Below are positions 55 to 35,619 of a stretch of DNA of 35,619 bases, piece by piece (position 1 is the first letter of the stretch; every line of letters begins with the position of its first letter). Made by a program: the position numbers and the translations under genes. Below the pieces are notes generated by a model, which worked only from the letters and a program-made list of their open reading frames with translations, was not told where the DNA came from and ran no database searches. Origin of the DNA: a virus; IMG/VR virus record IMGVR_UViG_3300045988_023336, positions 1-35,619 of that record; one strand, written 5' to 3'.

Positions 55-304
55 GTGCAGGTTTCGCGGCACGCTTAGCACGGGTCTTGGCGCGTTCTGA
101 TTCTACGATCTCGGCCACTGTTTTAGGCTTCTCTTCGTCCTTCACCTTTGTCGCTTCTACAACTGCGTCCGCTAACTTGTCAAGATCGGTTTTACGTTCC
201 GTTACTTCCGGTATGGCTTCGCCGGCCAATTCACGTAAATAGTTAGATGCCGCTAACAATTCCTTCACACTCTCATTTCCGATTAATTCGATTACTACTT
301 TCAT
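1..304 (-). CDS. N-terminal part (101 codons) of a ~209-aa acidic Pro/Ala/Glu-repeat protein; the ORF runs off the window start and resumes at 35259..35619
   Basis: The ATG at 304-302 overlaps the TGA of the upstream HTH gene (ATGA). The minus frame stays open to base 1 (MKVVIELIGNESVKELLAASNYLRELAGEAIPEVTERKTDLDKLADAVVEATKVKDEEKPKTVAEIVESERAKTRAKRAAKPAPAPAEEPAPAEEPAPAEE). Collapsing the 35-nt overlap of the window ends keeps it in frame with 35259..35576. Confidence 0.7.
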   Translation of the reverse strand, partial: MKVVIELIGNESVKELLAASNYLRELAGEAIPEVTERKTDLDKLADAVVEATKVKDEEKPKTVAEIVESERAKTRAKRAAKPAPAPAEEPAPAEEPAPAEE

Positions 305-480
305 TTCTTTTTAAAATTAAAAATTGTTTCTAATAATTCATTTTTGTTCACTCTGATTTTGCCCGTTCCGTTCTCGTACCGGGTGAGTTTTCCGGCGTTG
401 AGCTGGTAGCGAATAGCGTTTTCGGTGCACTCCGCTAACCGGGCGGCTTCCGCCACTGTGATAAGTTCTACTTTTTCCAT
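301..480 (-). CDS. 59-aa helix-turn-helix DNA-binding protein (excisionase/MerR-like, HTH_17-type), absent from the ORF track because it is under 60 aa
   Basis: Hand translation: MEKVELITVAEAARLAECTENAIRYQLNAGKLTRYENGTGKIRVNKNELLETIFNFKKK. It fits the pattern 'LTv.EaA.ll.vs..tiry....Gkl......g.iri....l' typical of Xis/AlpA-type HTH proteins. Its start overlaps the end of 468..797 by 13 nt, and its TGA overlaps the next ATG (ATGA at 301-304). Confidence 0.75.
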   Translation of the reverse strand: MEKVELITVAEAARLAECTENAIRYQLNAGKLTRYENGTGKIRVNKNELLETIFNFKKK

Positions 481-797
481 TTCATCTTTTCGTTAAATTT
501 AAAATTCAATTTGTCAGACGTTCGATAAGTTTGTACGTGATCGGAGTATGCAGCGCGCCGGGCCTGCTCGAAAATAGTTTCGTAACGTTTGGCGTGTGGA
601 ATTATAAAGCCCCGGATTTTATACTTAAACTTTTTTCCGGCTTCTTCTTCTCGTTGCAAATCATCGAACATCATTTTCGAGTTGCCCGGATAGCCGTATA
701 GCATTGTAGCCTCGCCTATCGTTTTGCACGCTGTAATCCTCTCCCGTATAATCTTATAAAAGAACGCTTCTAACTTATAAATGTCTATTGCTGCCAT
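468..797 (-). CDS. Hypothetical 109-aa protein, first gene of the early operon
   Basis: Track ORF. It lies 77 nt downstream of a TAnnTTTG box and is followed by the tightly overlapping HTH gene. No motif recognised. Confidence 0.6.
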   Translation of the reverse strand: MAAIDIYKLEAFFYKIIRERITACKTIGEATMLYGYPGNSKMMFDDLQREEEAGKKFKYKIRGFIIPHAKRYETIFEQARRAAYSDHVQTYRTSDKLNFKFNEKMKWKK

Positions 798-873: not shown

Positions 874-925
874 CAAAGGTAGGGCTTTATTTTGAACTAC
901 AAAACTATTTCCCAAAAAACTTTAG
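874..925 (-). promoter_or_regulatory. Early promoter P1, Bacteroidota type (-7 TACCTTTG, -33 TTTG, shared upstream element)
   Basis: Plus-strand caaaggta at 874-881 gives TACCTTTG on the minus strand. caaa at 900-903 gives TTTG, with an 18-nt spacer. The upstream caaaaaactttag (913-925) is identical to 28795-28807. The spacer GCTTTATTTTGAACTACAAA closely matches the spacer at 34038-34059. Confidence 0.6.
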
Positions 926-1086
926 TAATTTAACTCTGATTAACGGTTTTGAGGGTTTGGTAACAGTGTCAATGATAAATAGCCCTTTTTAAACGCATCT
1001 TTCATGCCTTAACTGCGTGCGTATCAGTTAGTTAAGTGGCAAAAACAGGTGAAGTGTCTAAGATGAAACATAGTTTCTCTATTAGT

Positions 1087-1269
1087 TTATATTTAAATAT
1101 TTCCATAAATTCATTCACATATTAATTCATATATTTACATATTTTATAGATTATATTACTATTTCATTCTTATCTCTATATATCATCTTTCCATCTTTGA
1201 CAAATACACTATATTACAGTATAAAGTACTATAAATAAGCAAGTTAAGTGTCAAAGATACAAATTTTAA
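1087..1269. repeat. Copy A of a ~185-bp dispersed direct repeat (partner at 21164..21347)
   Basis: 1087-1108 is identical (22/22) to 21164-21185 and contains the palindrome ATATTTAAATAT. 1185-1269 matches 21263-21347 at 80/85 positions. The intervening AT-rich spacer is 76 nt in copy A and 77 nt in copy B. Confidence 0.9.
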
Positions 1270-1363: not shown

Positions 1364-1951
1364 TTATTTGTCGAATTCTGCCGAGAATTCTACGTGTATT
1401 TTAGATTTTGGGTTTTTGTTCGATACGGTTATCGTTTGTTTCGGTTTTCCGATCCGGAAGAATAAAAAACGCTTTTGCTTGACTGATCCGATCACGTCTA
1501 TTGTGTCAACACTACTAGATTTTATAATTGTGGTGTCCGGTTTGGATTCAACTTGTATATCATTCCACCCATCGAAATAGTGGGCTAGCCTGTTTTCCTT
1601 GTTTCCGTCCCGGTATTCTGTCTTAACCACAGTGTCCACCTTGGTAACTGTCTCGGCCCTTGTAGCGTTCTTTAGCTCTCTTATCTTTATTCCCGCCTCG
1701 CGTACCTTATTATATAGATCAGCGTTATATAGCTCTAGCTCGTCCTTCTCTAACTTTAACTGCCTGGCCTGTTCCGCGTAATCGCCTGCCGTAGTCTTAA
1801 ATGCTACGGCCTCGGTGTTAAGCGCGGTGAGGTTGTTTTCCTGCCGTTCTAGCTCTTTTCTCTGTTTTTGTACTGTCTTATACGACGCGTACAACAAAAT
1901 GGCCAGGAGGACAGCTAAACACACCAATATCTTATTTAATGTTATTTTCAT
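1364..1951 (-). CDS. Membrane-anchored coiled-coil protein, spanin-like, last gene of the lysis cluster
   Basis: It has an N-terminal TM segment (ILVCLAVLLAILLYASY) followed by a coiled-coil region. An ATGA overlap links it to the endolysin gene. Function is inferred from position only. Confidence 0.4.
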   Translation of the reverse strand: MKITLNKILVCLAVLLAILLYASYKTVQKQRKELERQENNLTALNTEAVAFKTTAGDYAEQARQLKLEKDELELYNADLYNKVREAGIKIRELKNATRAETVTKVDTVVKTEYRDGNKENRLAHYFDGWNDIQVESKPDTTIIKSSSVDTIDVIGSVKQKRFLFFRIGKPKQTITVSNKNPKSKIHVEFSAEFDK

Positions 1952-4369: not shown

Positions 4370-4873
4370 TTACTCTTCGAACTCTTTAAGACCCTCGGCT
4401 GCTTCTGCTTCCGCTGCTGCTTTGTTTGCCGCTCTAGTAGCCGCTGCCTTTTTAGCCGCTTCGCTGCGTCTTGCCGCGGCGATCTCTTCCTCTGTCAGCT
4501 CCGGTTCACCTTCTACAGGCGCTTCCGGTTCTGCTTCCGGCTCTTCTACAGGCGCTTCCGGTTCTGCTTCCGGTTCTGCTTCCGGTTCTGCTTGCAGGTC
4601 TATAAAGTACTCGCGGTAATTCTCGTTAGCTTCCATGAACTCTACAGCCTTCTCGTCACTTGTGTTGAATGCGCGGTACACTCGTCCATCTTCAATCGAA
4701 TTGATGAACAGTCCCGGCTTCATTACGTAGCGGGTGTGTACACCAGTTAAATAACGTTCTTCGTACCAACGTTGTGCAAACAGGCGATCCGCCCCGCACG
4801 CAATATCCAATTTTAGATTAGTCATTGTCTGACACAATGAAACGATCTGCCCTATATCTGTAATTTTTTCCAT
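4370..4873 (-). CDS. Hypothetical 167-aa protein with an acidic EAEP/EAPVE tandem-repeat linker and an Ala/Lys-rich C-terminus
   Basis: Track ORF. The repeat is visible in both DNA and protein (AEPEAEPEAEPEAPVEEPEAEPEAPVEGEPE). Confidence 0.6.
   Translation of the reverse strand: MEKITDIGQIVSLCQTMTNLKLDIACGADRLFAQRWYEERYLTGVHTRYVMKPGLFINSIEDGRVYRAFNTSDEKAVEFMEANENYREYFIDLQAEPEAEPEAEPEAPVEEPEAEPEAPVEGEPELTEEEIAAARRSEAAKKAAATRAANKAAAEAEAAEGLKEFEE
4508..4595. repeat. In-frame tandem repeat: two 30-nt units with 33-nt period, plus 12-nt ttctgcttccgg units
   Basis: 4511-4540 equals 4544-4573. These are followed by repeated ttctgcttccgg. Confidence 0.85.
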
Positions 4874-19142: not shown

Positions 19143-20315
19143 CTAATCATTATTTGCGTATCTCGGGCGGTATTTACGTATAAGATAATCAACGCCGTAA
19201 CGTATGGCGTCCCATGCGTGGTTGTACGCGTCTATCGGCTCGTTTGTGTACGTGTCGGTCAGGTTGTCCTTGACGTAGGTGTAATTGTCTGCCTCGTCCA
19301 GTACGTTAGTGCTCCGCTTCGTCACGAACAGGTTGAACTGCTTCACCTGCTGGATGCCGGCACGGATCGATCCTTTCCCCTTGATGCAGGGGATCGTGTT
19401 ACAGCCCAGGCCGCGTAGCTCTATGATAGACTTCTGCTCGGCGTTGTCGCATACCGTAATGGTACGGTCCAGCCTTTCCATCTTAAGCCGCTCGGCGATC
19501 GTGCGGTTAAGCATCTTCGTCTCGTAGCACACTTCATCTATATACAGGTTCATGCCCCGCATGTAGATCTTGACAATAGCGGTCGGGTCGTTCTGGAAGC
19601 CGAAATCAAGCCCTGTAACGAACTTTACGTCCTCGCCCGTTAAATCCTCCGGCAGAGCATCGATCGTCTCAATTTGGGGATATACGAGGCCTTCCAGCCC
19701 GCCCGTCAGTCCTTCACCGTATACTCGCCACCAGTTAGCGTCCTTGGCGTTTCGCTCGATCGCCTCTACCTGCTGCTTGGATAGGTACGGGTTGTCCTTG
19801 TAGGTGCTGTGGATCGTTACGTACTTGTCGCCTGTGAAGTCCGTCTCACCCCAGAAGCGCCGCACCGGGTTGAAGTCGATAATAACCTTGATCGTGGTAC
19901 GAACGTCCAACTGCCTGAATATCTCACGGGGTACACGCTGCGCCTCGTTGATGAAAAGAATGTCACGCGCTGGGCCGTGTACCTTTGACGCGTTGTCGCA
20001 CCCGAAGAATTCGATGCAGACCCCCGGCTTCACCGTGTAGATCAGATCGGACTTGTTAAGCGCGTTGTCGTCCCATACCCCTTCGTCTAACAGCATGTTC
20101 TGGAAGTCACGGAACATACCGCGCTTCACGGCCGGTAACGTGTCGGTCACGCAGGAGATCATAAGCGGCTCGGTACTTTCGTTAGCAACCAGATAGAGGA
20201 GCTGTAACACGCTCCATGTCTTTGATGAACGCGTACCACCTTTACTCGCGATACCTCTTATATAGGGGTCGCAAAACGGTCCTATCATCTTGTTAAATAC
20301 ATAGGTGCAATTCAT
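19143..20315 (-). CDS. terL: Terminase large subunit (Terminase_3/PBSX-like)
   Basis: Walker A-like KGGTRSSKTWS. The nuclease-domain segment GLDFGFQNDPTAIV is typical of this family. A TAATG overlap links it to the preceding small-subunit gene. Confidence 0.85.
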   Translation of the reverse strand: MNCTYVFNKMIGPFCDPYIRGIASKGGTRSSKTWSVLQLLYLVANESTEPLMISCVTDTLPAVKRGMFRDFQNMLLDEGVWDDNALNKSDLIYTVKPGVCIEFFGCDNASKVHGPARDILFINEAQRVPREIFRQLDVRTTIKVIIDFNPVRRFWGETDFTGDKYVTIHSTYKDNPYLSKQQVEAIERNAKDANWWRVYGEGLTGGLEGLVYPQIETIDALPEDLTGEDVKFVTGLDFGFQNDPTAIVKIYMRGMNLYIDEVCYETKMLNRTIAERLKMERLDRTITVCDNAEQKSIIELRGLGCNTIPCIKGKGSIRAGIQQVKQFNLFVTKRSTNVLDEADNYTYVKDNLTDTYTNEPIDAYNHAWDAIRYGVDYLIRKYRPRYANND

Positions 20316-21004
20316 TATTTATCGTCCTCCTTGTGATCCTTTTTAAAGTTCTTGATCGAGCTAACCTTTGCACGTACTTTCGGATCGGTTACATTGACCG
20401 TCAAACCGCCCTTGATAGCTTCGCCGTTGGATGTGTAGTCCATTTGCGTTTTAATGCCCCGTAGCGCACGAACGTAGTTGGCGTCGAACTGTCCCACCGT
20501 CGCGCCCTGATCGAGGTCCTGTGCGATGGCTTCGCGTATCCTGTCGATCACCGCTATGAAGTCCGCGCATATCGTCAGATCGAACTCTTTCAGATTCTCG
20601 GCGTAGGTAGCGCGGCGGTTGTGCAAATAGTTGACGTTAGCGCCCAGGAACATGCAGAACTCGCCCTCCGATTGAAGGTGCTTCTTCGGCACTTCATAGA
20701 GCGTCCCAGCCATGTTACCGGACTTGACGGCCTCTTGTGTTATAACGGGCGTCGCTTCACACCAAGCCGAGTAAATCGCGTACGCCTCCCAAAGTTCTTG
20801 GGGCTCCTGCCAGATAGGCGTCATGCCGTAATGCGCCGTAGCGACCTGGTAGCACTTGGTGTAATTGAACGAATCTGCCAAATACTTGGTAGCCGCGTAT
20901 GTGGGAGCCAATTGGAAGTGCGCGTAATCCGGCCTAACCTTCTCGACTTTTGGCAGCTGTACCGCTTCCTTCGTTTCTATAATTTCTTTCTTCTTTGTAG
21001 CCAT
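20315..21004 (-). CDS. terS: Putative terminase small subunit (229 aa from the ATG at 21004)
   Basis: It lies immediately upstream of terL and overlaps it. The track start at 21079 would run through the promoter and operator boxes. The ATG at 21004 (MATKKKEII...) sits 23 nt downstream of a TATTTTTG box. Confidence 0.55.
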   Translation of the reverse strand: MATKKKEIIETKEAVQLPKVEKVRPDYAHFQLAPTYAATKYLADSFNYTKCYQVATAHYGMTPIWQEPQELWEAYAIYSAWCEATPVITQEAVKSGNMAGTLYEVPKKHLQSEGEFCMFLGANVNYLHNRRATYAENLKEFDLTICADFIAVIDRIREAIAQDLDQGATVGQFDANYVRALRGIKTQMDYTSNGEAIKGGLTVNVTDPKVRAKVSSIKNFKKDHKEDDK

Positions 21005-21026
21005 ATAATTTTTATTTACAACTCTA

Positions 21027-21087
21027 CAAAAATACGCTTTTTCCGCCCAAATCGCCATCTTTCCACCTACCAAAAACATCTTTCCAC
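21027..21087 (-). promoter_or_regulatory. Late promoter candidate (-7 TATTTTTG) with two phased GTGGAAAGATG boxes in place of a -33 element
   Basis: Plus-strand caaaaata at 21027-21034. catctttccac occurs at 21056-21066 and 21077-21087, exactly 21 bp apart. The proximal box ends 21 nt upstream of the -7 box. Confidence 0.5.
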
Positions 21088-21122
21088 TCCGAAACCCTGA
21101 TGAACAGGGCGTTTCAGCTCAA

Positions 21123-21147
21123 GTGTCATAGATGGAAAGATGGAAAC
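21123..21147. promoter_or_regulatory. Operator-like boxes GTGTCATAGATGGAAAG plus an overlapping GATGGAAAC
   Basis: 14/15 match to the reverse complement of 21265-21279 and to 1326-1340. Confidence 0.5.
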
Positions 21148-21163
21148 GGGTTTTCCCTATAGA

Positions 21164-21347
21164 TTATATTTAAATATTTCCATAATTTCAATAACATTCA
21201 ATAACAATAGTATAATATAGTTAACTATATTATTACTTATTAATAGTTACTAACTAGTATATATCTTTCCATCTTTGACAAATACACTATATTATATGAT
21301 AAAGTACTATAAATAAGCAAGTTAGGTGTAAAAGATACAAATTTTAA
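21164..21347. repeat. Copy B of the ~185-bp dispersed direct repeat (partner at 1087..1269)
   Basis: See copy A: a 22/22 box, a 77-nt AT-rich spacer and an 80/85 block. Confidence 0.9.
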
Positions 21348-21547
21348 CCTATGACATCAATAATTTGAAAAGTGCGTTCTGCGTCCTGTGGGGCTGGTCA
21401 GGTGTCAAACATGAAATGGCAGTGTCAAAGACATTTTTCACTACTTTTTTGTCAAAAACAGGCTTTTTAGTTAAAATACCGTTAAAATCAAGCTTTCTCT
21501 CTAAAAAGTTTTCTCTCACAAAGTTTTTTGAGAAGTGCGTTAAATTT

Positions 21548-21601
21548 TTTAACTAAAAGTCACCTTAACGTTTTTATACGAAAAGGTGACTTTTAGTTAA
21601 A
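21548..21601. repeat. Perfect 19-bp inverted repeat with a 16-nt loop, 5 nt after the last early gene
   Basis: tttaactaaaagtcacctt (21548-21566) is the exact reverse complement of aaggtgacttttagttaaa (21583-21601). Neither strand has a U-tract 3' of the stem, so it is not a canonical intrinsic terminator. Confidence 0.85.
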
Positions 21602-21606
21602 TCCAT

Positions 21607-22146
21607 TTAACAATCCAGATTGTACATAACCTTCCAGTCGTCTAAAATATCTTTACATTTCCATCTCTCGGCCCTCTCAATCGTTTTCCATGTCAGCGTA
21701 CGCCGGTCTAAAACATCTAGCGACCTACTGCCATCGCAGTACATATTAACCCGGTACAGCATTGAAACCTCTATCCCGTTACGGTTTAGCTCCGTATCTT
21801 TACTCGGGTAGATCGGGCGTTCTATGTCGTCGTTCTCATACGGCCCTACACGCTTCTTGTCCTTGTCACGGTACAGCATATTCTCCACTGTCGGTATGCG
21901 CTCCGGGTCGGTTCTCGTGTTCCTATCGTCCCGTACTTTGCTAGCCGCGTATATTATGTCCCGGATCGCCTCACAGAACAACGACGCGTTAACCATGTGA
22001 AACGGTTTGCCCTTCACCTTGAGATACTTCACACCGTTCGCCTCAAGCCAGTTGAAGATGAAAAACGCATGAAGATTATATAACTGTGCCATTTCTTCGA
22101 TGACTAGAACTCGTCTCTGTTTCTTCTTAATATATGGTGTCGGCAT
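21607..22146 (-). CDS. Hypothetical 179-aa protein, last early gene, with a possible N-terminal winged-HTH
   Basis: Track ORF. The segment IEEMAQLYNLHAFFIFNWLEANGVKYLKVKGKPFHMVNASLF loosely resembles an Xis/MerR-type HTH. Confidence 0.55.
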   Translation of the reverse strand: MPTPYIKKKQRRVLVIEEMAQLYNLHAFFIFNWLEANGVKYLKVKGKPFHMVNASLFCEAIRDIIYAASKVRDDRNTRTDPERIPTVENMLYRDKDKKRVGPYENDDIERPIYPSKDTELNRNGIEVSMLYRVNMYCDGSRSLDVLDRRTLTWKTIERAERWKCKDILDDWKVMYNLDC

Positions 22147-25878: not shown

Positions 25879-26310
25879 TTATTTATTATTGGTTATTGCT
25901 TCCGCCATCTTCTTAAGCTCGTTGCGTGAGATGTTAACGGTGAACTGGTTGCCCGGGCTGAATATCTGCCATACGCCTGCCATCTTCGGGAAACGCGCAG
26001 TGTGATCCCCTGGGTTGTTTAGGTGCACTATCTCGTTGCTACTTGACGGTTTGTACTCTGCAAGACTTAAGAGCGTCTTAACCGCTGCGTCCGCGTCGCC
26101 TAGATCGATGTCCATCTCTAGGGAACTTGTCCCAGCTAGCTGCCCGGTGATCTGATAGGTTACCGCGTCGCCCTTCGTGACTTCCACGATCTTACATGTT
26201 CCCAGGCGGAAAGACTTAAGCGTTTTTAAACTGCCTGATGCGGTTGATACTTGCGCCATTGCGCTAACTGATAACAAAACTACTGCTAAAATACTGATTA
26301 ACTTTTTCAT
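25879..26310 (-). CDS. Secreted 143-aa protein with a cleavable signal peptide
   Basis: MKKLISILAVVLLSVSAMA-QVST is a classical n-h-c signal peptide with an AxA site and no lipobox Cys. The gene is preceded by the conserved hairpin element. Confidence 0.65.
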   Translation of the reverse strand: MKKLISILAVVLLSVSAMAQVSTASGSLKTLKSFRLGTCKIVEVTKGDAVTYQITGQLAGTSSLEMDIDLGDADAAVKTLLSLAEYKPSSSNEIVHLNNPGDHTARFPKMAGVWQIFSPGNQFTVNISRNELKKMAEAITNNK

Positions 26311-26353
26311 ATCTTTTGGGTGTTGTGGGCGGTGTTACCCGCCCGGGTTAATT
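26311..26353 (-). promoter_or_regulatory. Conserved intergenic element 1: 6-bp GC hairpin (26327-26344) plus a conserved 16-nt pre-ATG tract
   Basis: Plus-strand GGGCGG tgttac CCGCCC. 35/40 positions match 28453-28492. Four of the five differences are two compensatory base-pair flips in the stem. Confidence 0.7.
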
Positions 26354-26770: not shown

Positions 26771-26810
26771 ACTCTTTAATTTTTAATTGGTTTATTTCCT
26801 TTTGACATTT

Positions 26811-26841
26811 CAAAGATACGGGTTCTTTTCATACTACCAAA
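26811..26841 (-). promoter_or_regulatory. Early promoter P2 (-7 TATCTTTG, -33 TTTG, 19-nt spacer)
   Basis: Plus-strand caaagata at 26811-26818 and caaa at 26838-26841. The -7 box and the ~40-nt leader are nearly identical to P3. Confidence 0.6.
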
Positions 26842-26886
26842 ATATAGGGTAAACTCTTAACTTTGATTTGCATTAAACGCTCTTAG

Positions 26887-28164: not shown

Positions 28165-28452
28165 CTAAAATATTTTAAAGGTTGATATTGCGTGATTAAA
28201 ATCTGATTCGCTAGCGCGCCACACTGTGTACATAGCGTACGTGAAGCGTTCACCCGACCCTAGTTTAGCGCGAATTTCCTTAACTTCTTCAAGGGAAGAA
28301 AAGGTTTTCAGTGCCTTAACTAGTTTCTGCATTTTCAGAGACCGGCTTTCGATCTGTTTCCTTGTGGGTTCTCCGAAGAACCCTTTCTTGTTCCAAAAGC
28401 GGCGGCGGGCTTTTAAATCCGCCTCGCTTAGTTCTCCTGTATTCTGTTTCAT
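28165..28452 (-). CDS. Hypothetical basic 95-aa protein, second gene of cassette 2
   Basis: Track ORF. It is preceded by conserved hairpin element 2. Confidence 0.55.
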   Translation of the reverse strand: MKQNTGELSEADLKARRRFWNKKGFFGEPTRKQIESRSLKMQKLVKALKTFSSLEEVKEIRAKLGSGERFTYAMYTVWRASESDFNHAISTFKIF

Positions 28453-28492
28453 ATCTTTTGAGTGTTGTGGCGGGTGTTACCCCGCCGGGTTA
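28453..28492 (-). promoter_or_regulatory. Conserved intergenic element 2: 6-bp GC hairpin (28469-28486) plus a conserved pre-ATG tract
   Basis: Plus-strand GGCGGG tgttac CCCGCC. This is the covarying partner of 26327-26344. Confidence 0.7.
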
Positions 28493-28717: not shown

Positions 28718-28756
28718 GACTTTAATTTTTAAGTGGTTATTTCCTTTTGACATTTC

Positions 28757-28807
28757 AAAGATACGACTTAATTACGAACTACCAAAACTTTTCTCAAAAA
28801 ACTTTAG
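28757..28807 (-). promoter_or_regulatory. Early promoter P3 (-7 TATCTTTG, -33 TTTG, 18-nt spacer, shared upstream element)
   Basis: Plus-strand caaagata at 28757-28764 and caaa at 28783-28786. caaaaaactttag at 28795-28807 is identical to 913-925. Confidence 0.6.
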
Positions 28808-28822
28808 CATATTAACAAAAAT

Positions 28823-28852
28823 AAAGTCTCGCGTATCACTACGAAAGACTTT
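28823..28852 (-). terminator. Weak stem-loop downstream of the primase gene
   Basis: aaagtct (28823-28829) pairs with agacttt (28846-28852) around a 16-nt loop. On the minus-sense RNA it is followed by AUUUUUGUU. Confidence 0.25.
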
Positions 28853-28911
28853 TTAACTGAAAAACCACCCTAAAAGTATTAACCTTAAAAATTAGAAAAG
28901 AAAGTTTTGTA

Positions 28912-31302
28912 TCACAAAGATAGTAATTTTTTGCTTTCCTTGCTACCTTTACGGATATAAATTACTTGTCGGCCGTACAATTTAGTTCTATTTAACGTTC
29001 CTTTGTACCAGCCTCCTAACTGTCGCATAGCTGTTGCCAGTTCGCGTCCCTTCGCGCTTGTATAATCTTCTTTCCGGCGTCCCAGCGCATCTACCCAAAG
29101 CTCCATCAAACAGAACGTATTTTTTTGAACCGTCCCAACCTCTTCCAGCGATCCGGCCAGAAAGTCAGCGCGTTGTTGTTCGGTGCGGTCTTCATAGTCA
29201 GCCGGGAAAAGCGTATTTACATAGTTCTCTATAATACCTACTAGCGGGCTTTCTTCTGTAAATTCTTCGCGTCCCTCGTTTGCAATCGCTTCCGCTTCGT
29301 CCGATAAGATAAGGCTTTCACCCAACATGTACAGCTCCATTGCTTCCGCCCATAATTGGTCCACTACGTCCTCGAAAGACTTCTCGAACAGCTTGTGCGT
29401 GTTCTTGTTGGCGCGTACCTCGATCGGGAAGAAACGGCGGTTGCCGGTCTTGTCCTTCAAAAACTCATCGTCGTTTGTAGACCCGAAAAATACGCATTGT
29501 CGGCGGTGCGTTTTTACCCGGCGGGCGTATGCGCTACGATACGTATCTTCGCGCTTGCTTATGAAGTTCTTAGTAGCCTCCACGTCCGAACGGCGAAGGG
29601 CTGACAACTCGGCTAGCTCCACGATCCAGGCGTGTTGTATTGCTTCATACGCCTTTTGCCCGGACACGTCCGTTAACGAGTCATTGAACCAGCCTTTCGA
29701 AAGCGCCTGTATAAGCGTGGACTTTCCTGCGCCTTGTCCTGAATACATAACCAAAGCCGTATCGAATTTGCGGCCTGGCTCGTAAACTCTAGTAACGGCG
29801 GCAACCAGCATTTTGCGGAACGCCTCGGACACATAGATACTAGGCTCTGCTCCCATGTAGTCAACCAAGAAATTATCAATACGTTTCACGCCGTCCCATC
29901 TTAGTGCCTCTAGGTACTTCTTGATAGGGTGGAAAGCGTTATCGCTGCAAACCTTTTCCAGTGCATCAGTTAGTTTGCTGTCATTATAAATACCGTGCAA
30001 GTCCTCTATACGTCCACGGATAATTGCTACAGCTGTGTCATCCAACATATCACCCTTCTTTATGTCCTTCGAGAAGAACGGCGTACGGGTGTACACGATC
30101 GTGTCTAGAAACAAGTCATAAGCTAGCAGATCATTTAATAGTGGATCACACTTGAAAGCGTTAACGAAGTTGCGAACGGTACACAATTTATCACCTTTGC
30201 GATCTAAATCCCAAACAAGTTCGGCAGCGGTCTGCGCGTCGCTCTTAACAGCGTCCGCGTATTCTTCGAAGTCGGCTAGATCATCGTCCACGGCTACCAT
30301 ATCTTTAACGCACTCTTTATCGGCGCAAATTAGCTTGTTCATCTCGCGGGTACTGTCTTCCTTACCCAGGTGTCCAAACTTGTGCACACGTACCAAATCG
30401 TAGGCGTTATAAGCGTGTCCGTCTCCGATAGGGTCGGTTGAGTGGTGAGAAAAGCATAGTACGTCGTCATACACGACTAAACCAGCCGCACCCGATCCAA
30501 GCACGTACGTATAACGTCCGTTTTCCGCTTCTGTGTAAACGTCTGACAAGTATTTCTCTATTGCTGCCTGTATCGTATACGAGCGGCAAAACGCGCCTAC
30601 TAGGCCCTCTTTGTCTCTAGGGTCTTTCGCCATCTCTTTACTGATGATAGAACGGGTATCACGTTCTACTTCTGAATGGAATGCCCATTTGCGCACGTCG
30701 CGCCATTCTTCATTGTCTCCATACAAACCTACGAGATACTCCGCGCTGATCGGCTCGCCCTCAAACACTTCGAAAAGCCCAGTTTGATCCTTGGAAAGAG
30801 ATTGCCAGTACATCATACGCTCGGGCTGGAAGGTTGTTTTATCAAATAGATCGATACCTAACAACTCGGCTACTTTACGCGCTGCGGCTTCGTACATAGT
30901 AACGTCTGTAACCTCTTCCTTTAACGGCATGATAAGACGGTAACGGCGCGATCCGGGACGATCAGATCTGGTAGTATAAATAGCTGCCGCCACACCGGAA
31001 AAACGATCCGCAAAATCGAACGGGAATAAATCATCTCCGAAGTCTACATCTAATGTAATCATTGAACGGGACATAACAGCCTTCTTAAGGCGTTGCGCGC
31101 CAGACAACTCGCCAGCCATGAATCCGCCTACGTCCTTCAAAGACGATTTAGCGGGCTTGTCTAATTTATCGTACTCACGTACCGTTTCGTTGGTGATAAC
31201 GGGTGTTCCCAAGCGTTTTACAAAATCATCCCATGTGAGGCGCACCGCCTTCCATTTCAGAGACGCTGAAGAACCTGCAAGTGATAAGGTGTATTTTTCC
31301 AT
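28912..31302 (-). CDS. Primase/helicase with a VirE (virulence-associated protein E) P-loop domain (796 aa)
   Basis: HPIKKYLEALRWDGVKRIDNFLVDYMGAE...EPGRKFDTALVMYSGQGAGKSTL...NRRFFPIEV matches the conserved VirE/D5-like NTPase core with Walker A GQGAGKST. The start lies 1 nt after the polymerase stop. Confidence 0.85.
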   Translation of the reverse strand: MEKYTLSLAGSSASLKWKAVRLTWDDFVKRLGTPVITNETVREYDKLDKPAKSSLKDVGGFMAGELSGAQRLKKAVMSRSMITLDVDFGDDLFPFDFADRFSGVAAAIYTTRSDRPGSRRYRLIMPLKEEVTDVTMYEAAARKVAELLGIDLFDKTTFQPERMMYWQSLSKDQTGLFEVFEGEPISAEYLVGLYGDNEEWRDVRKWAFHSEVERDTRSIISKEMAKDPRDKEGLVGAFCRSYTIQAAIEKYLSDVYTEAENGRYTYVLGSGAAGLVVYDDVLCFSHHSTDPIGDGHAYNAYDLVRVHKFGHLGKEDSTREMNKLICADKECVKDMVAVDDDLADFEEYADAVKSDAQTAAELVWDLDRKGDKLCTVRNFVNAFKCDPLLNDLLAYDLFLDTIVYTRTPFFSKDIKKGDMLDDTAVAIIRGRIEDLHGIYNDSKLTDALEKVCSDNAFHPIKKYLEALRWDGVKRIDNFLVDYMGAEPSIYVSEAFRKMLVAAVTRVYEPGRKFDTALVMYSGQGAGKSTLIQALSKGWFNDSLTDVSGQKAYEAIQHAWIVELAELSALRRSDVEATKNFISKREDTYRSAYARRVKTHRRQCVFFGSTNDDEFLKDKTGNRRFFPIEVRANKNTHKLFEKSFEDVVDQLWAEAMELYMLGESLILSDEAEAIANEGREEFTEESPLVGIIENYVNTLFPADYEDRTEQQRADFLAGSLEEVGTVQKNTFCLMELWVDALGRRKEDYTSAKGRELATAMRQLGGWYKGTLNRTKLYGRQVIYIRKGSKESKKLLSL

Positions 31303-34029: not shown

Positions 34030-34059
34030 CAAAGATATTGCTTTATTTTAAACTTCAAA
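34030..34059 (-). promoter_or_regulatory. Early promoter P4 (-7 TATCTTTG, -33 TTTG, 18-nt spacer)
   Basis: Plus-strand caaagata at 34030-34037 and caaa at 34056-34059. The spacer GCTTTATTTTAAACTTCAAA is nearly identical to the P1 spacer. Confidence 0.6.
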
Positions 34060-34095
34060 CCTTTTATACATTCTTTAATTGTTTTTTAACTTCTG

Positions 34096-35259: not shown

Positions 35260-35619
35260 TATAGGCGGCTCGAAATGTATGCAACAAAATCGTTAAACAT
35301 CTCTTCCTTCAACGTCGGGAAACTGGAAGCGCCTACGCTTTCAAAAGCTTCCTGTACAATCGGGCGTTTCTTCGCGTTTAGAGCCTTCATAGCCCATGAT
35401 TTACAATCGTCGATAGTGTGCTCCGTTTCTGTCTTAGCGGGCTTCTCTGATGGTGCCGGAGCAGGTTCTTCCACTGGTGCCGGAGCAGGTTCTTCCACTG
35501 GTGCCGGAGCAGGTTCTTCCACTGGTGCGGGTTCTTCTGCCTTTGCAGGTTCTTCCACTGGTGTAGGCTCTTCCACTGGTGCAGGCTCTTCTGCTGGTGC
35601 AGGCTCTTCTGCTGGTGCA
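35259..35619 (-). CDS. C-terminal part of the wrap-around acidic PAPxEE-repeat protein (continuation of 1..304)
   Basis: The frame of track ORF 35259..35576 remains open to the window end. The repeat EEPAPAPV occurs three times, followed by a globular C-terminus (TEHTIDDCKSWAMKALNAKKRPIVQEAFESVGASSFPTLKEEMFNDFVAYISSRL). Confidence 0.7.
   Translation of the reverse strand, partial: APAEEPAPAEEPAPVEEPTPVEEPAKAEEPAPVEEPAPAPVEEPAPAPVEEPAPAPSEKPAKTETEHTIDDCKSWAMKALNAKKRPIVQEAFESVGASSFPTLKEEMFNDFVAYISSRL
35451..35619. repeat. In-frame tandem repeats: 3 perfect 24-nt units (35451-35522), then degenerate 18-nt units running to the window end
   Basis: tggtgccggagcaggttcttccac occurs three times. Then ggctcttc(c/t)(a/g)ctggtgca units follow. 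The last 35 nt equal the first 35 nt of the window. Confidence 0.9.

Follow-up and report, generated by a model that had tools for sequence, protein, structure and literature searches.

In the Staphylococcus aureus pathogenicity islands (SaPIs), the Rep proteins are self-loading helicase-initiators whose C-terminal winged helix reads 6 to 12 iterons, and the origin carries these iterons on both sides of an AT-rich centre, at least two per side and in opposite orientation (PMC9371898). Phage SPP1 has two similarly built origins, oriL and oriR, which lie ca. 13 kb apart and are both bound by gp38 (PMC6316719). Theta replication of SPP1 starts at oriL, and the switch to concatemers is proposed to be set off by a fork stalled at gp38-bound oriR (PMC6316719, PMC3485210). 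Here, we describe two homologous noncoding modules, A and B, in a DNA stretch of 35,619 nucleotides (nt) from a virus (IMG/VR record IMGVR_UViG_3300045988_023336), referred to as the window, which is a complete, circularly permuted Bacteroides siphophage genome of 35.6 kb. Both modules are probably a duplicated iteron replication origin of this phage, a reading that is supported by their anatomy, conservation, homology, and co-variation with a phage protein. The best reading of the repeats is that they are recognised by the C-terminal domain of the phage primase-helicase, with a mechanism of the SaPI type and a duplication resembling SPP1 oriL/oriR. A literature search found neither origins nor these repeats described for the cultured gut Bacteroides phages of this group, and the sole paper citing one of their accessions was a review.

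The modules occupy the two longest intergenic regions of the genome, 798-1363 (566 nt) and 21005-21606 (602 nt), the next longest being of 158 nt, and lie in direct orientation with a spacing of 20,078 and 15,541 bp on the circular map. Both contain the 22-nt box TTATATTTAAATATTTCCATAA in identical form (1087-1108 and 21164-21185), including the perfect palindrome ATATTTAAATAT, then a spacer of 76 nt in copy A (1109-1184) and 77 nt in copy B (21186-21262), and then a block identical at 80 of 85 positions (1185-1269 versus 21263-21347). A repeat finder lengthened this block to 94 nt at 91% (1185-1278 versus 21263-21356) and returned a second repeat family at 1060-1120 versus 21137-21197 (77%). 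Such a twin repeat cannot arise by chance. An earlier note, made by reading the letters of the window, had described the box with its palindrome, the spacers, the block, the location in the two longest noncoding gaps, and the placement at both early/late boundaries with arcs of roughly 20 (here 20.1) and 15.5 kb, all of which we recovered. It had drawn the limits of the modules too narrowly: the homology runs further, from ca. 1049 to 1362 in A and from ca. 21117 to 21436 in B (ca. 315 to 400 bp), and extra repeat sites lie at 967-1006 and 21047-21089.

Within these limits, we found an iteron motif of 9 to 10 bp, TGT(C/A)AAAGAT, the common form of which is a tandem doublet, TGTCAAAGA followed by TGGAAAGA. 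Each module has eight motif positions, and A4, B3, and B4 are tandem doublets. The motif is strongly enriched in the modules and almost lacking in the rest of the genome. Of the 11 genomic occurrences of the heptamer AAAGATG, 9 lie inside the two gaps, versus 0.36 expected from gap length, and TGTMAAAGAT, with at most one mismatch, occurs 18 times, 12 of them within the two modules, the shuffled sequences giving 4.7 genome-wide. The modules also hold the two 100-nt segments of lowest GC content in the genome, 1074-1173 (the lowest) and 21163-21262 (the second), with 14% GC versus 46.7% overall.

Read along the plus strand, both modules share one layout: one or two right-pointing sites, an AT-rich core, a left-pointing double site, ca. 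45 conserved nt, an inverted pair, and two further sites. In module B, the double site B3 (21124-21142, plus strand; TGTCATAGA, TGGAAAGA, and TG, with TGTCAACGATGTCAACGAT or TGTAAATGATGTAAATGAT in relatives) opposes the double site B4 (21263-21280, minus strand; TGTCAAAGA, TGGAAAGA, and T), inverted relative to it across a 120-bp core (21143-21262; 19.2% GC) that holds the 22-nt box, two tandem copies of TTCAATAACA, and the AT palindrome AATATAGTTAACTATATT. In module A, the site A3 (1055-1066, plus strand; TGTCTAAGATGA), which is homologous to B3 and has a degenerate second unit, lies on the low-coordinate side of the core and points toward it; on the far side and in the opposite orientation stands the double site A4 (1184-1202, minus strand; TGTCAAAGA, TGGAAAGA, and TG). 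The 117-bp core between them (1067-1183; 15.4% GC), a candidate DNA-unwinding element, holds the 22-nt box and has CATAT every 10 bp at 1110, 1120, and 1130. The inverted pairs are A5/A6 (TGTCAAAGAT-acaaatttta-ATCTTTTACA, 1249-1278) and B5/B6 (TGTAAAAGAT-acaaatttta-ACCTATGACA, 21327-21356), and all 16 A and 19 B copies of an alignment had the same centre, AGATACAAATTTTAATC. Beyond the pairs, on the plus strand, follow A7 (CGTCAAAGAT, 1325-1334) and A8 (TGTGAAAGAT, 1346-1355) in one module and B7 (TGTCAAACAT, 21403-21412) and B8 (TGTCAAAGAC, 21423-21432) in the other. The outlying iteron-like sites are A1 (TGTCAATGAT, 967-976, plus strand), which matches the C/A type of the phage, and A2 (997-1006, minus strand), and, between the B core and terS, B1 and B2 (GGTGGAAAGATGG and GAGTGGAAAGATGT on the minus strand, 21047-21089), of which B2 matches the iteron type of the phage.

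This arrangement is that of the SaPI origins, in which an AT-rich centre is flanked on each side by at least two short repeats, the two sides being opposed, and the eight positions per module fall within the range of 6 to 12. The earlier note had likened the modules to iterons plus an unwinding element, i.e., an origin, and the evidence favours that idea; the conserved flanks that it had named for the part are not themselves iterons, the 9- to 10-bp motif lying partly inside the 85-nt block (1184-1202 and 1249-1278) and partly outside the modules as then delimited. Unlike SaPI origins, the modules have additional repeat sites, including the inverted pair over a promoter-like sequence.

The candidate initiator is a primase-helicase of 796 amino acids (aa) encoded at 28912-31302 on the minus strand. 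Its VapE-like superfamily 3 (SF3) helicase domain (Pfam PF05272, residues 464 to 682, E = 1.5e-76) is homologous to the Rep proteins of SaPIs and phage-inducible chromosomal islands (PDB 7PDS and 7OM0), and the match to 7PDS, the SaPI1 Rep1-DNA structure, reached E = 8.5e-72 over residues 386 to 711. The PHROG matches were to primase and helicase families, with the N-terminal part falling in phage primase families; SaPI PriRep5 is likewise a primase fused to a Rep. The C-terminal domain spans residues ca. 720 to 796 and includes Arg778, the codon of which is at 28969-28971.

Position 4 of the repeat, C or A, switches in step at six sites across both modules, and the variant tracks residue 778 of the primase-helicase, as seen in the double iteron A4. 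We examined 50 loci encoding relatives of this protein, with 10-kb flanks; for 40 phages, the residue could be read and one or both modules were present. Arg778 went with TGTC-type repeats in 14 of 15 phages, and Ala, Gln, Ser, or Val went with TGTA-type repeats in 24 of 25 (38/40 together; Fisher p = 9e-9). Among 1978 variable columns in 21 proteins (20 from the early region plus terS), residue 778 ranked first, with a normalised mutual information of 0.68 (n = 41), and the runner-up columns had n of 16 to 18 and many states. In 10 mosaic whole genomes, the columns that split by repeat type were residue 778, one column of PolA, and one in a hypervariable tail protein, with almost no others. 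The alleles of the gene adjoining module B were mixed with respect to repeat type, Arg and non-Arg were both seen on either main haplotype of the C-terminal domain, and modules A and B agreed in repeat type in all 17 phages with both read. These three findings speak against simple linkage. The repeat variant in both modules thus co-varies tightly with a single position of the helicase tail, and it is because the flanking repeats vary between phages together with this one residue that a duplicated origin is the most likely identity of the modules. In SaPIs, a C-terminal domain sets the specificity and has diverged from element to element along with the repeats, and the same appears to hold here.

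Other proteins were considered as readers of the repeats and rejected. The 59-aa helix-turn-helix (HTH) protein and the 109-aa protein are 93 to 100% conserved, and no column of these two, of the 179-aa protein, or of TerS follows the repeat variant in the way of residue 778. The idea of a landing pad for the 59-aa or the 179-aa protein, raised in the earlier note, is therefore not borne out by the sequences compared.

The modules recur across relatives. The window is ca. 88% identical to isolates from Bacteroides ovatus, B. koreensis, and B. kribbi (e.g., BKO1-1 and BK745P4), and we aligned 16 A and 19 B regions and later 30 A and 29 B regions. Each of the 19 isolates that matched the module had exactly two copies, in the same two gaps, and some 30 IMG/VR contigs of the close clade carried modules at the same positions. 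The spacer of copy A, described earlier as diverged, is not drifting: positions 1100-1139 were 98 to 99% conserved across 30 phages, above coding DNA. The cores have evolved unequally, that of copy A being nearly invariant and that of copy B having two or three alleles, and the most variable short stretches of the modules were the copies of the single TGT(C/A)AAAGAT motif. The 22-nt box does not count among the shared conserved parts: copy B of many relatives has another sequence at its place, so that A and B of these phages do not have the box in common. An exact-match scan of viral contigs for the box returned mostly unrelated AT-rich DNA (L003-L008, L010, and L011).

A more distant clade, in which the primase-helicase is 69% identical (here, the 69% clade), also has a module in each of the two gaps, laid out alike but built of different repeats. 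In L068, a member of this clade, ATCTGTGACA (at most one mismatch) had 12 matches versus 0.5 expected, all 12 in its two modules, 6 in each, and in L078 the repeat is TGTAATAGAT. The architecture has thus been kept while the repeat sequence and the protein tail have both changed, as expected of an initiator and its origin. In L090, a different kind of phage with a helicase 37% identical, no twin module was found in the 17 kb examined.

Several points weigh against an origin read by this protein. The association test counts related phages as independent, and there are two exceptions, with one module available each: L044, with Arg and TGTA sites, and L043, with Ala and mostly TGTC sites. The 69% clade breaks the Arg-to-C rule, L068 having Pro at that position and TGTC-type repeats. 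The tail of SaPI Rep is a winged helix, whereas the tail fold here rests on models of modest confidence. The AlphaFold2 models of the tail had predicted local distance difference test (pLDDT) values of 67 and 71, and put residue 778 in the final hairpin of a putative beta-helix-helix-helix-beta-beta order; a search for homologues of the tail yielded 9 proteins, a shallow alignment. A Foldseek search of these models against PDB gave nothing below E = 0.5, the weak matches being mostly winged-helix proteins. SaPIs have one origin, immediately downstream of rep, whereas here there are two copies at operon boundaries and neither adjoins the helicase gene, the distances being ca. 7.6 kb on one side and ca. 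5.4 kb or more on the other. No repeat array was present in the 158-nt gap that follows the helicase gene (28754-28911); a single one-mismatch match to the motif lies at 28753-28762, in the -7 box region of an early promoter. The repeats are of 9 to 10 bp, often in tandem doublets of 8 to 9 bp, versus the 5- to 6-nt iterons of SaPIs. The cumulative GC skew of the genome showed no turning point, a weakly informative result because all genes are on one strand. Finally, a full consensus promoter over the inverted pair of copy A leaves room for a transcriptional role.

That promoter bears on an alternative in which the modules are transcriptional control regions, i.e., regulated promoters and operator arrays that set the early/late switch, with a dedicated regulator on the operators or, in its place, the primase-helicase tail as a repressor or activator. 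The housekeeping-sigma promoter consensus of Bacteroides is reportedly TTTG-N19-21-TAnnTTTG. A scan of the genome for it gave 5 matches, all on the gene strand, versus 0.54 expected, and one of them, TTTG-N21-TATCTTTG at 1252-1284 on the minus strand, overlaps the inverted pair A5/A6, from where it might transcribe through the A core. Control of transcription would suit the position of both modules exactly at operon boundaries, the presence of small HTH genes nearby, and the near-match TTTG-N20-TATCTTT[T/G/A] found in copy B of most relatives. However, copy B of the window has no promoter match (ATTG ... TATCTTTT), and in the 69% clade the pair is TGTCACAGAT-N11-ATCAGTGACA, without TAnnTTTG, yet the repeat layout is kept. 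Better conserved promoters serve the neighbours: a consensus early promoter of the 468-797 operon at 874-903 (minus strand, downstream of module A in gene sense, 96 to 97% conserved) and a predicted late promoter (-7 box at 21027-21034) with the invariant TATTTTTG, 22 nt ahead of the start of terS. Moreover, the sole strongly associated protein is a replication enzyme, and no column of the 59-aa HTH, 109-aa, or 179-aa protein follows the repeat variant. We treat the copy-A promoter as secondary because it is absent from the copy B of the window and from the 69% clade and because separate conserved promoters serve the adjacent operons; transcriptional control as the function of the modules seems to us quite improbable. 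The narrower proposal that the inverted pair is simply a promoter was dropped as the main explanation, since the 69% clade lacks the -7 box.

The early promoter at 874-903 belongs to a family whose four extended regions lie on the gene strand at 847-934, 26776-26846, 28721-28816, and 34030-34065. They have the full TTTG-N18-19-TAnnTTTG with a common upstream sequence (AAAAAACTTTAG...), stand ahead of early-region operons, and occur in the 69% clade as well.

The same promoter match would start a transcript ca. 5 to 10 nt ahead of the copy-A block, which folds well on the gene strand (-22.3 kcal/mol, z = -4.6), as would be expected if the common block were a small RNA or a shared structured 5' leader, another suggestion of the earlier note. 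The copy-B block, in contrast, folded no better than shuffles (z = -0.08). Over 55 distinct copies, covariation was 0.064 versus 0.064 in shuffled alignments, pairs with changes on both sides numbered 3 versus 3.1, and the key pair between two repeat sites was broken in 32 of the 55. Whole-window scans gave no Rfam family and no tRNA, and the apparent stem consists of two inverted copies of the protein-linked repeat. An RNA is, on these grounds, the most improbable of the explanations considered.

Copy B lies directly upstream of terS, a frequent location of pac, so we weighed whether the modules are packaging signals or sites for the small terminase or for an unidentified protein. TerS is among the most variable proteins (in 25 phages, 130 of its 229 columns vary, the neighbouring TerL being 98 to 99% identical), and the isolate record of BKO1-1 begins inside the copy-B gap. 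Nonetheless, a second signal 20 kb off, after the lysis genes, serves no role in headful packaging, and the best terS column reached a normalised mutual information of 0.42 (n = 25) versus the value for residue 778 given above. The record starts of the other isolates lie within a tandem-repeat gene and therefore reflect assembly, not true termini. Packaging sites thus appear very improbable. The target of TerS may vary along with TerS, as a separate observation. We also tried and rejected an inverton: inverted arms are present, but the core had the same orientation in all 59 aligned copies.

Returning to the duplicated origin, we envisage that the two origins would stand in direct orientation, one at the late-to-early gene boundary and the other at the early-to-late boundary. 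The C-terminal domain of the primase-helicase would recognise the repeats and the protein would assemble there, melt the AT-rich core of 117 to 120 bp and 15 to 19% GC, which would act as the unwinding element, load itself as the replicative helicase, and prime synthesis for the phage PolA. The consensus promoter within copy A may help the core to open. We infer repeat binding, melting, and self-loading by analogy with the SaPI Reps. The firing of both copies we likewise infer, the alternative being that one copy is an enhancer or a fork barrier, like P4 crr or SPP1 oriR.

This alternative refines the origin reading and has a real, if minor, chance of being correct: one copy would be the working origin, and the other a helper site for the same protein, either a looping enhancer of the P4 crr kind or a fork barrier of the SPP1 oriR kind. 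The A and B cores evolve differently, and the phage encodes the same kind of restart toolkit as SPP1 (an exonuclease, a single-stranded-DNA-annealing protein, and a VRR-NUC nuclease). The precedent is SPP1 itself, with the proposal that gp38-bound oriR stalls the fork and triggers the switch (PMC3485210, PMC6316719). On the other hand, the complete structure, an AT-rich core with opposed repeats, is found in both copies and in both clades, and the sequence gives no indication of which copy fires. The crr of phage P4 reportedly lacks an unwinding core of its own and is said to consist of two 120-bp direct repeats that do not make up a full origin; both copies here are complete. A more specific proposal, a division of labour in place of two redundant origins, appears improbable to us: one copy would fire, and the other, bound by the same helicase tail, would be a programmed barrier or loop anchor that switches replication to the concatemer mode and, with copy B directly upstream of the terS operon, couples the start of late transcription and packaging to replication.

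As in SPP1, a circularised siphophage genome transcribed from one strand has two similar elements kilobases apart, each consisting of repeats plus an AT-rich element for (here putative) unwinding; one of them stands among the late genes, in a long intergenic stretch with transcription signals on either side, and the genome encodes an exonuclease, an annealing protein, and a junction nuclease. The two SPP1 copies are bound by one origin-binding protein, and a common reader is putative here. The SPP1 initiator gp38 is a separate protein, acting with the loader gp39 and the DnaB-type helicase gp40, whereas the presumed initiator here is the SF3 primase-helicase itself; oriL lies inside gene 38, whereas both copies here are intergenic. 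The alpha protein of phage P4 (PDB 1KA8) is said to combine a primase, an SF3 helicase, and a C-terminal origin-binding domain in one polypeptide, and the same short repeat reportedly occurs in two separated cis elements, ori and crr, both needed for replication. The P4 primase is of a different type from the primase here. In comparison with SaPIs, which are Gram-positive satellites, the carrier here is a complete lytic-type Bacteroides siphophage.

If the duplicated origin is correct, it would place the origins of an entire family, isolates as well as metagenomic genomes, and name their initiator. A simple recognition rule would follow, in which C:G at position 4 of the repeat is matched by Arg778 and A:T by a small or polar residue, and which could be used for studying initiator-origin co-evolution in a heavily recombining phage population. 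The self-loading helicase origin of the SaPI type would then reach from Gram-positive satellites to complete Bacteroidota phages, in a duplicated, SPP1-like form, and the modules would be candidate minimal replicons for Bacteroides vectors. This is not a new principle; it is a clean case of origin-initiator co-evolution in a group for which no origins had been described.

Two metagenomic contigs of ca. 20 to 25 kb, L083 (ending at 19663) and L087 (ending at 21111), stop inside module B. The earlier note had proposed that the direct repeats recombine and resolve the genome into two half-circles, for which we found no evidence; contigs ending in a module look like ordinary assembly breaks at a 200- to 300-bp repeat, and the twin modules would account for the frequent assembly breaks of these phages there.

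Further conserved elements were observed between the iterons. The sequence AAAACGCCAACTCGTTAAGAATCAGCGTTTT, at 1283-1313 between A6 and A7 (7-bp stem, 17-nt loop), is 97 to 99% conserved in 30 phages and lies directly next to the -33 box of the promoter match in copy A; at this place (21357-21400), an unrelated yet likewise conserved sequence is found in copy B. The hairpin-like conserved GAAACCCTGATGAACAGGGCGTTTC lies at 21090-21120, between B2 and B3, and at the equivalent place the 69% clade has, in both modules, a hairpin with a 10-bp stem (GACGCCTAAC...GTTAGGCGTC).

As for the genomic setting, every credible gene is on the minus strand. In gene sense, terS (20315-21004) is followed by terL and the structural and lysis genes down to 1364, the last of which (1364-1951, minus strand) encodes a DUF6549 protein and adjoins the M15 endolysin gene; the gap with copy A comes next. 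The early genes then begin with those of the 109-aa protein (468-797, minus strand) and the 59-aa HTH protein (301-480, minus strand), a repeat protein across the window ends, and the exonuclease, and continue with the annealing protein, PolA, the primase-helicase, VRR-NUC, and an SNF2-type helicase. The last of them encodes the 179-aa protein (21607-22146, minus strand) and is followed by the gap with copy B. The replication gene set thus comprises the SF3 primase-helicase, PolA, the SNF2-type helicase, a DUF2800 exonuclease, DUF2815, and VRR-NUC. After the last early gene, outside the putative origin, lies a hairpin at 21548-21601 on the minus strand, with 24-nt arms that are 92% complementary and change compensatorily among phages (GTCACCTT/AAGGTGAC, GCGTGTT/AACACGC, and GGGGTT/AACCCC); it is probably the terminator of the early operon.

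Other repeats were found away from the modules. An 18-nt tandem repeat (GCTCTTCTGCTGGTGCAG-like) occupies 1-71 and 35445-35619, inside the minus-strand gene spanning the junction, and has other periods at this position in relatives, 15 nt in L068 and 9 nt in L078. Since it runs across both ends, the cut that made the window fell within the gene of the repeat protein and probably reflects an assembly break. A 49-nt direct repeat (88%) at 26302-26350 and 28444-28492 contains a GC-rich hairpin (GGGCGGTGTTACCCGCCC) adjoining a gene start and looks like a repeated terminator-plus-start cassette. Lastly, the minus-strand gene at 4370-4873, among the more variable structural genes, carries in-frame tandem repeats of 33 and 12 nt at 4510-4599.

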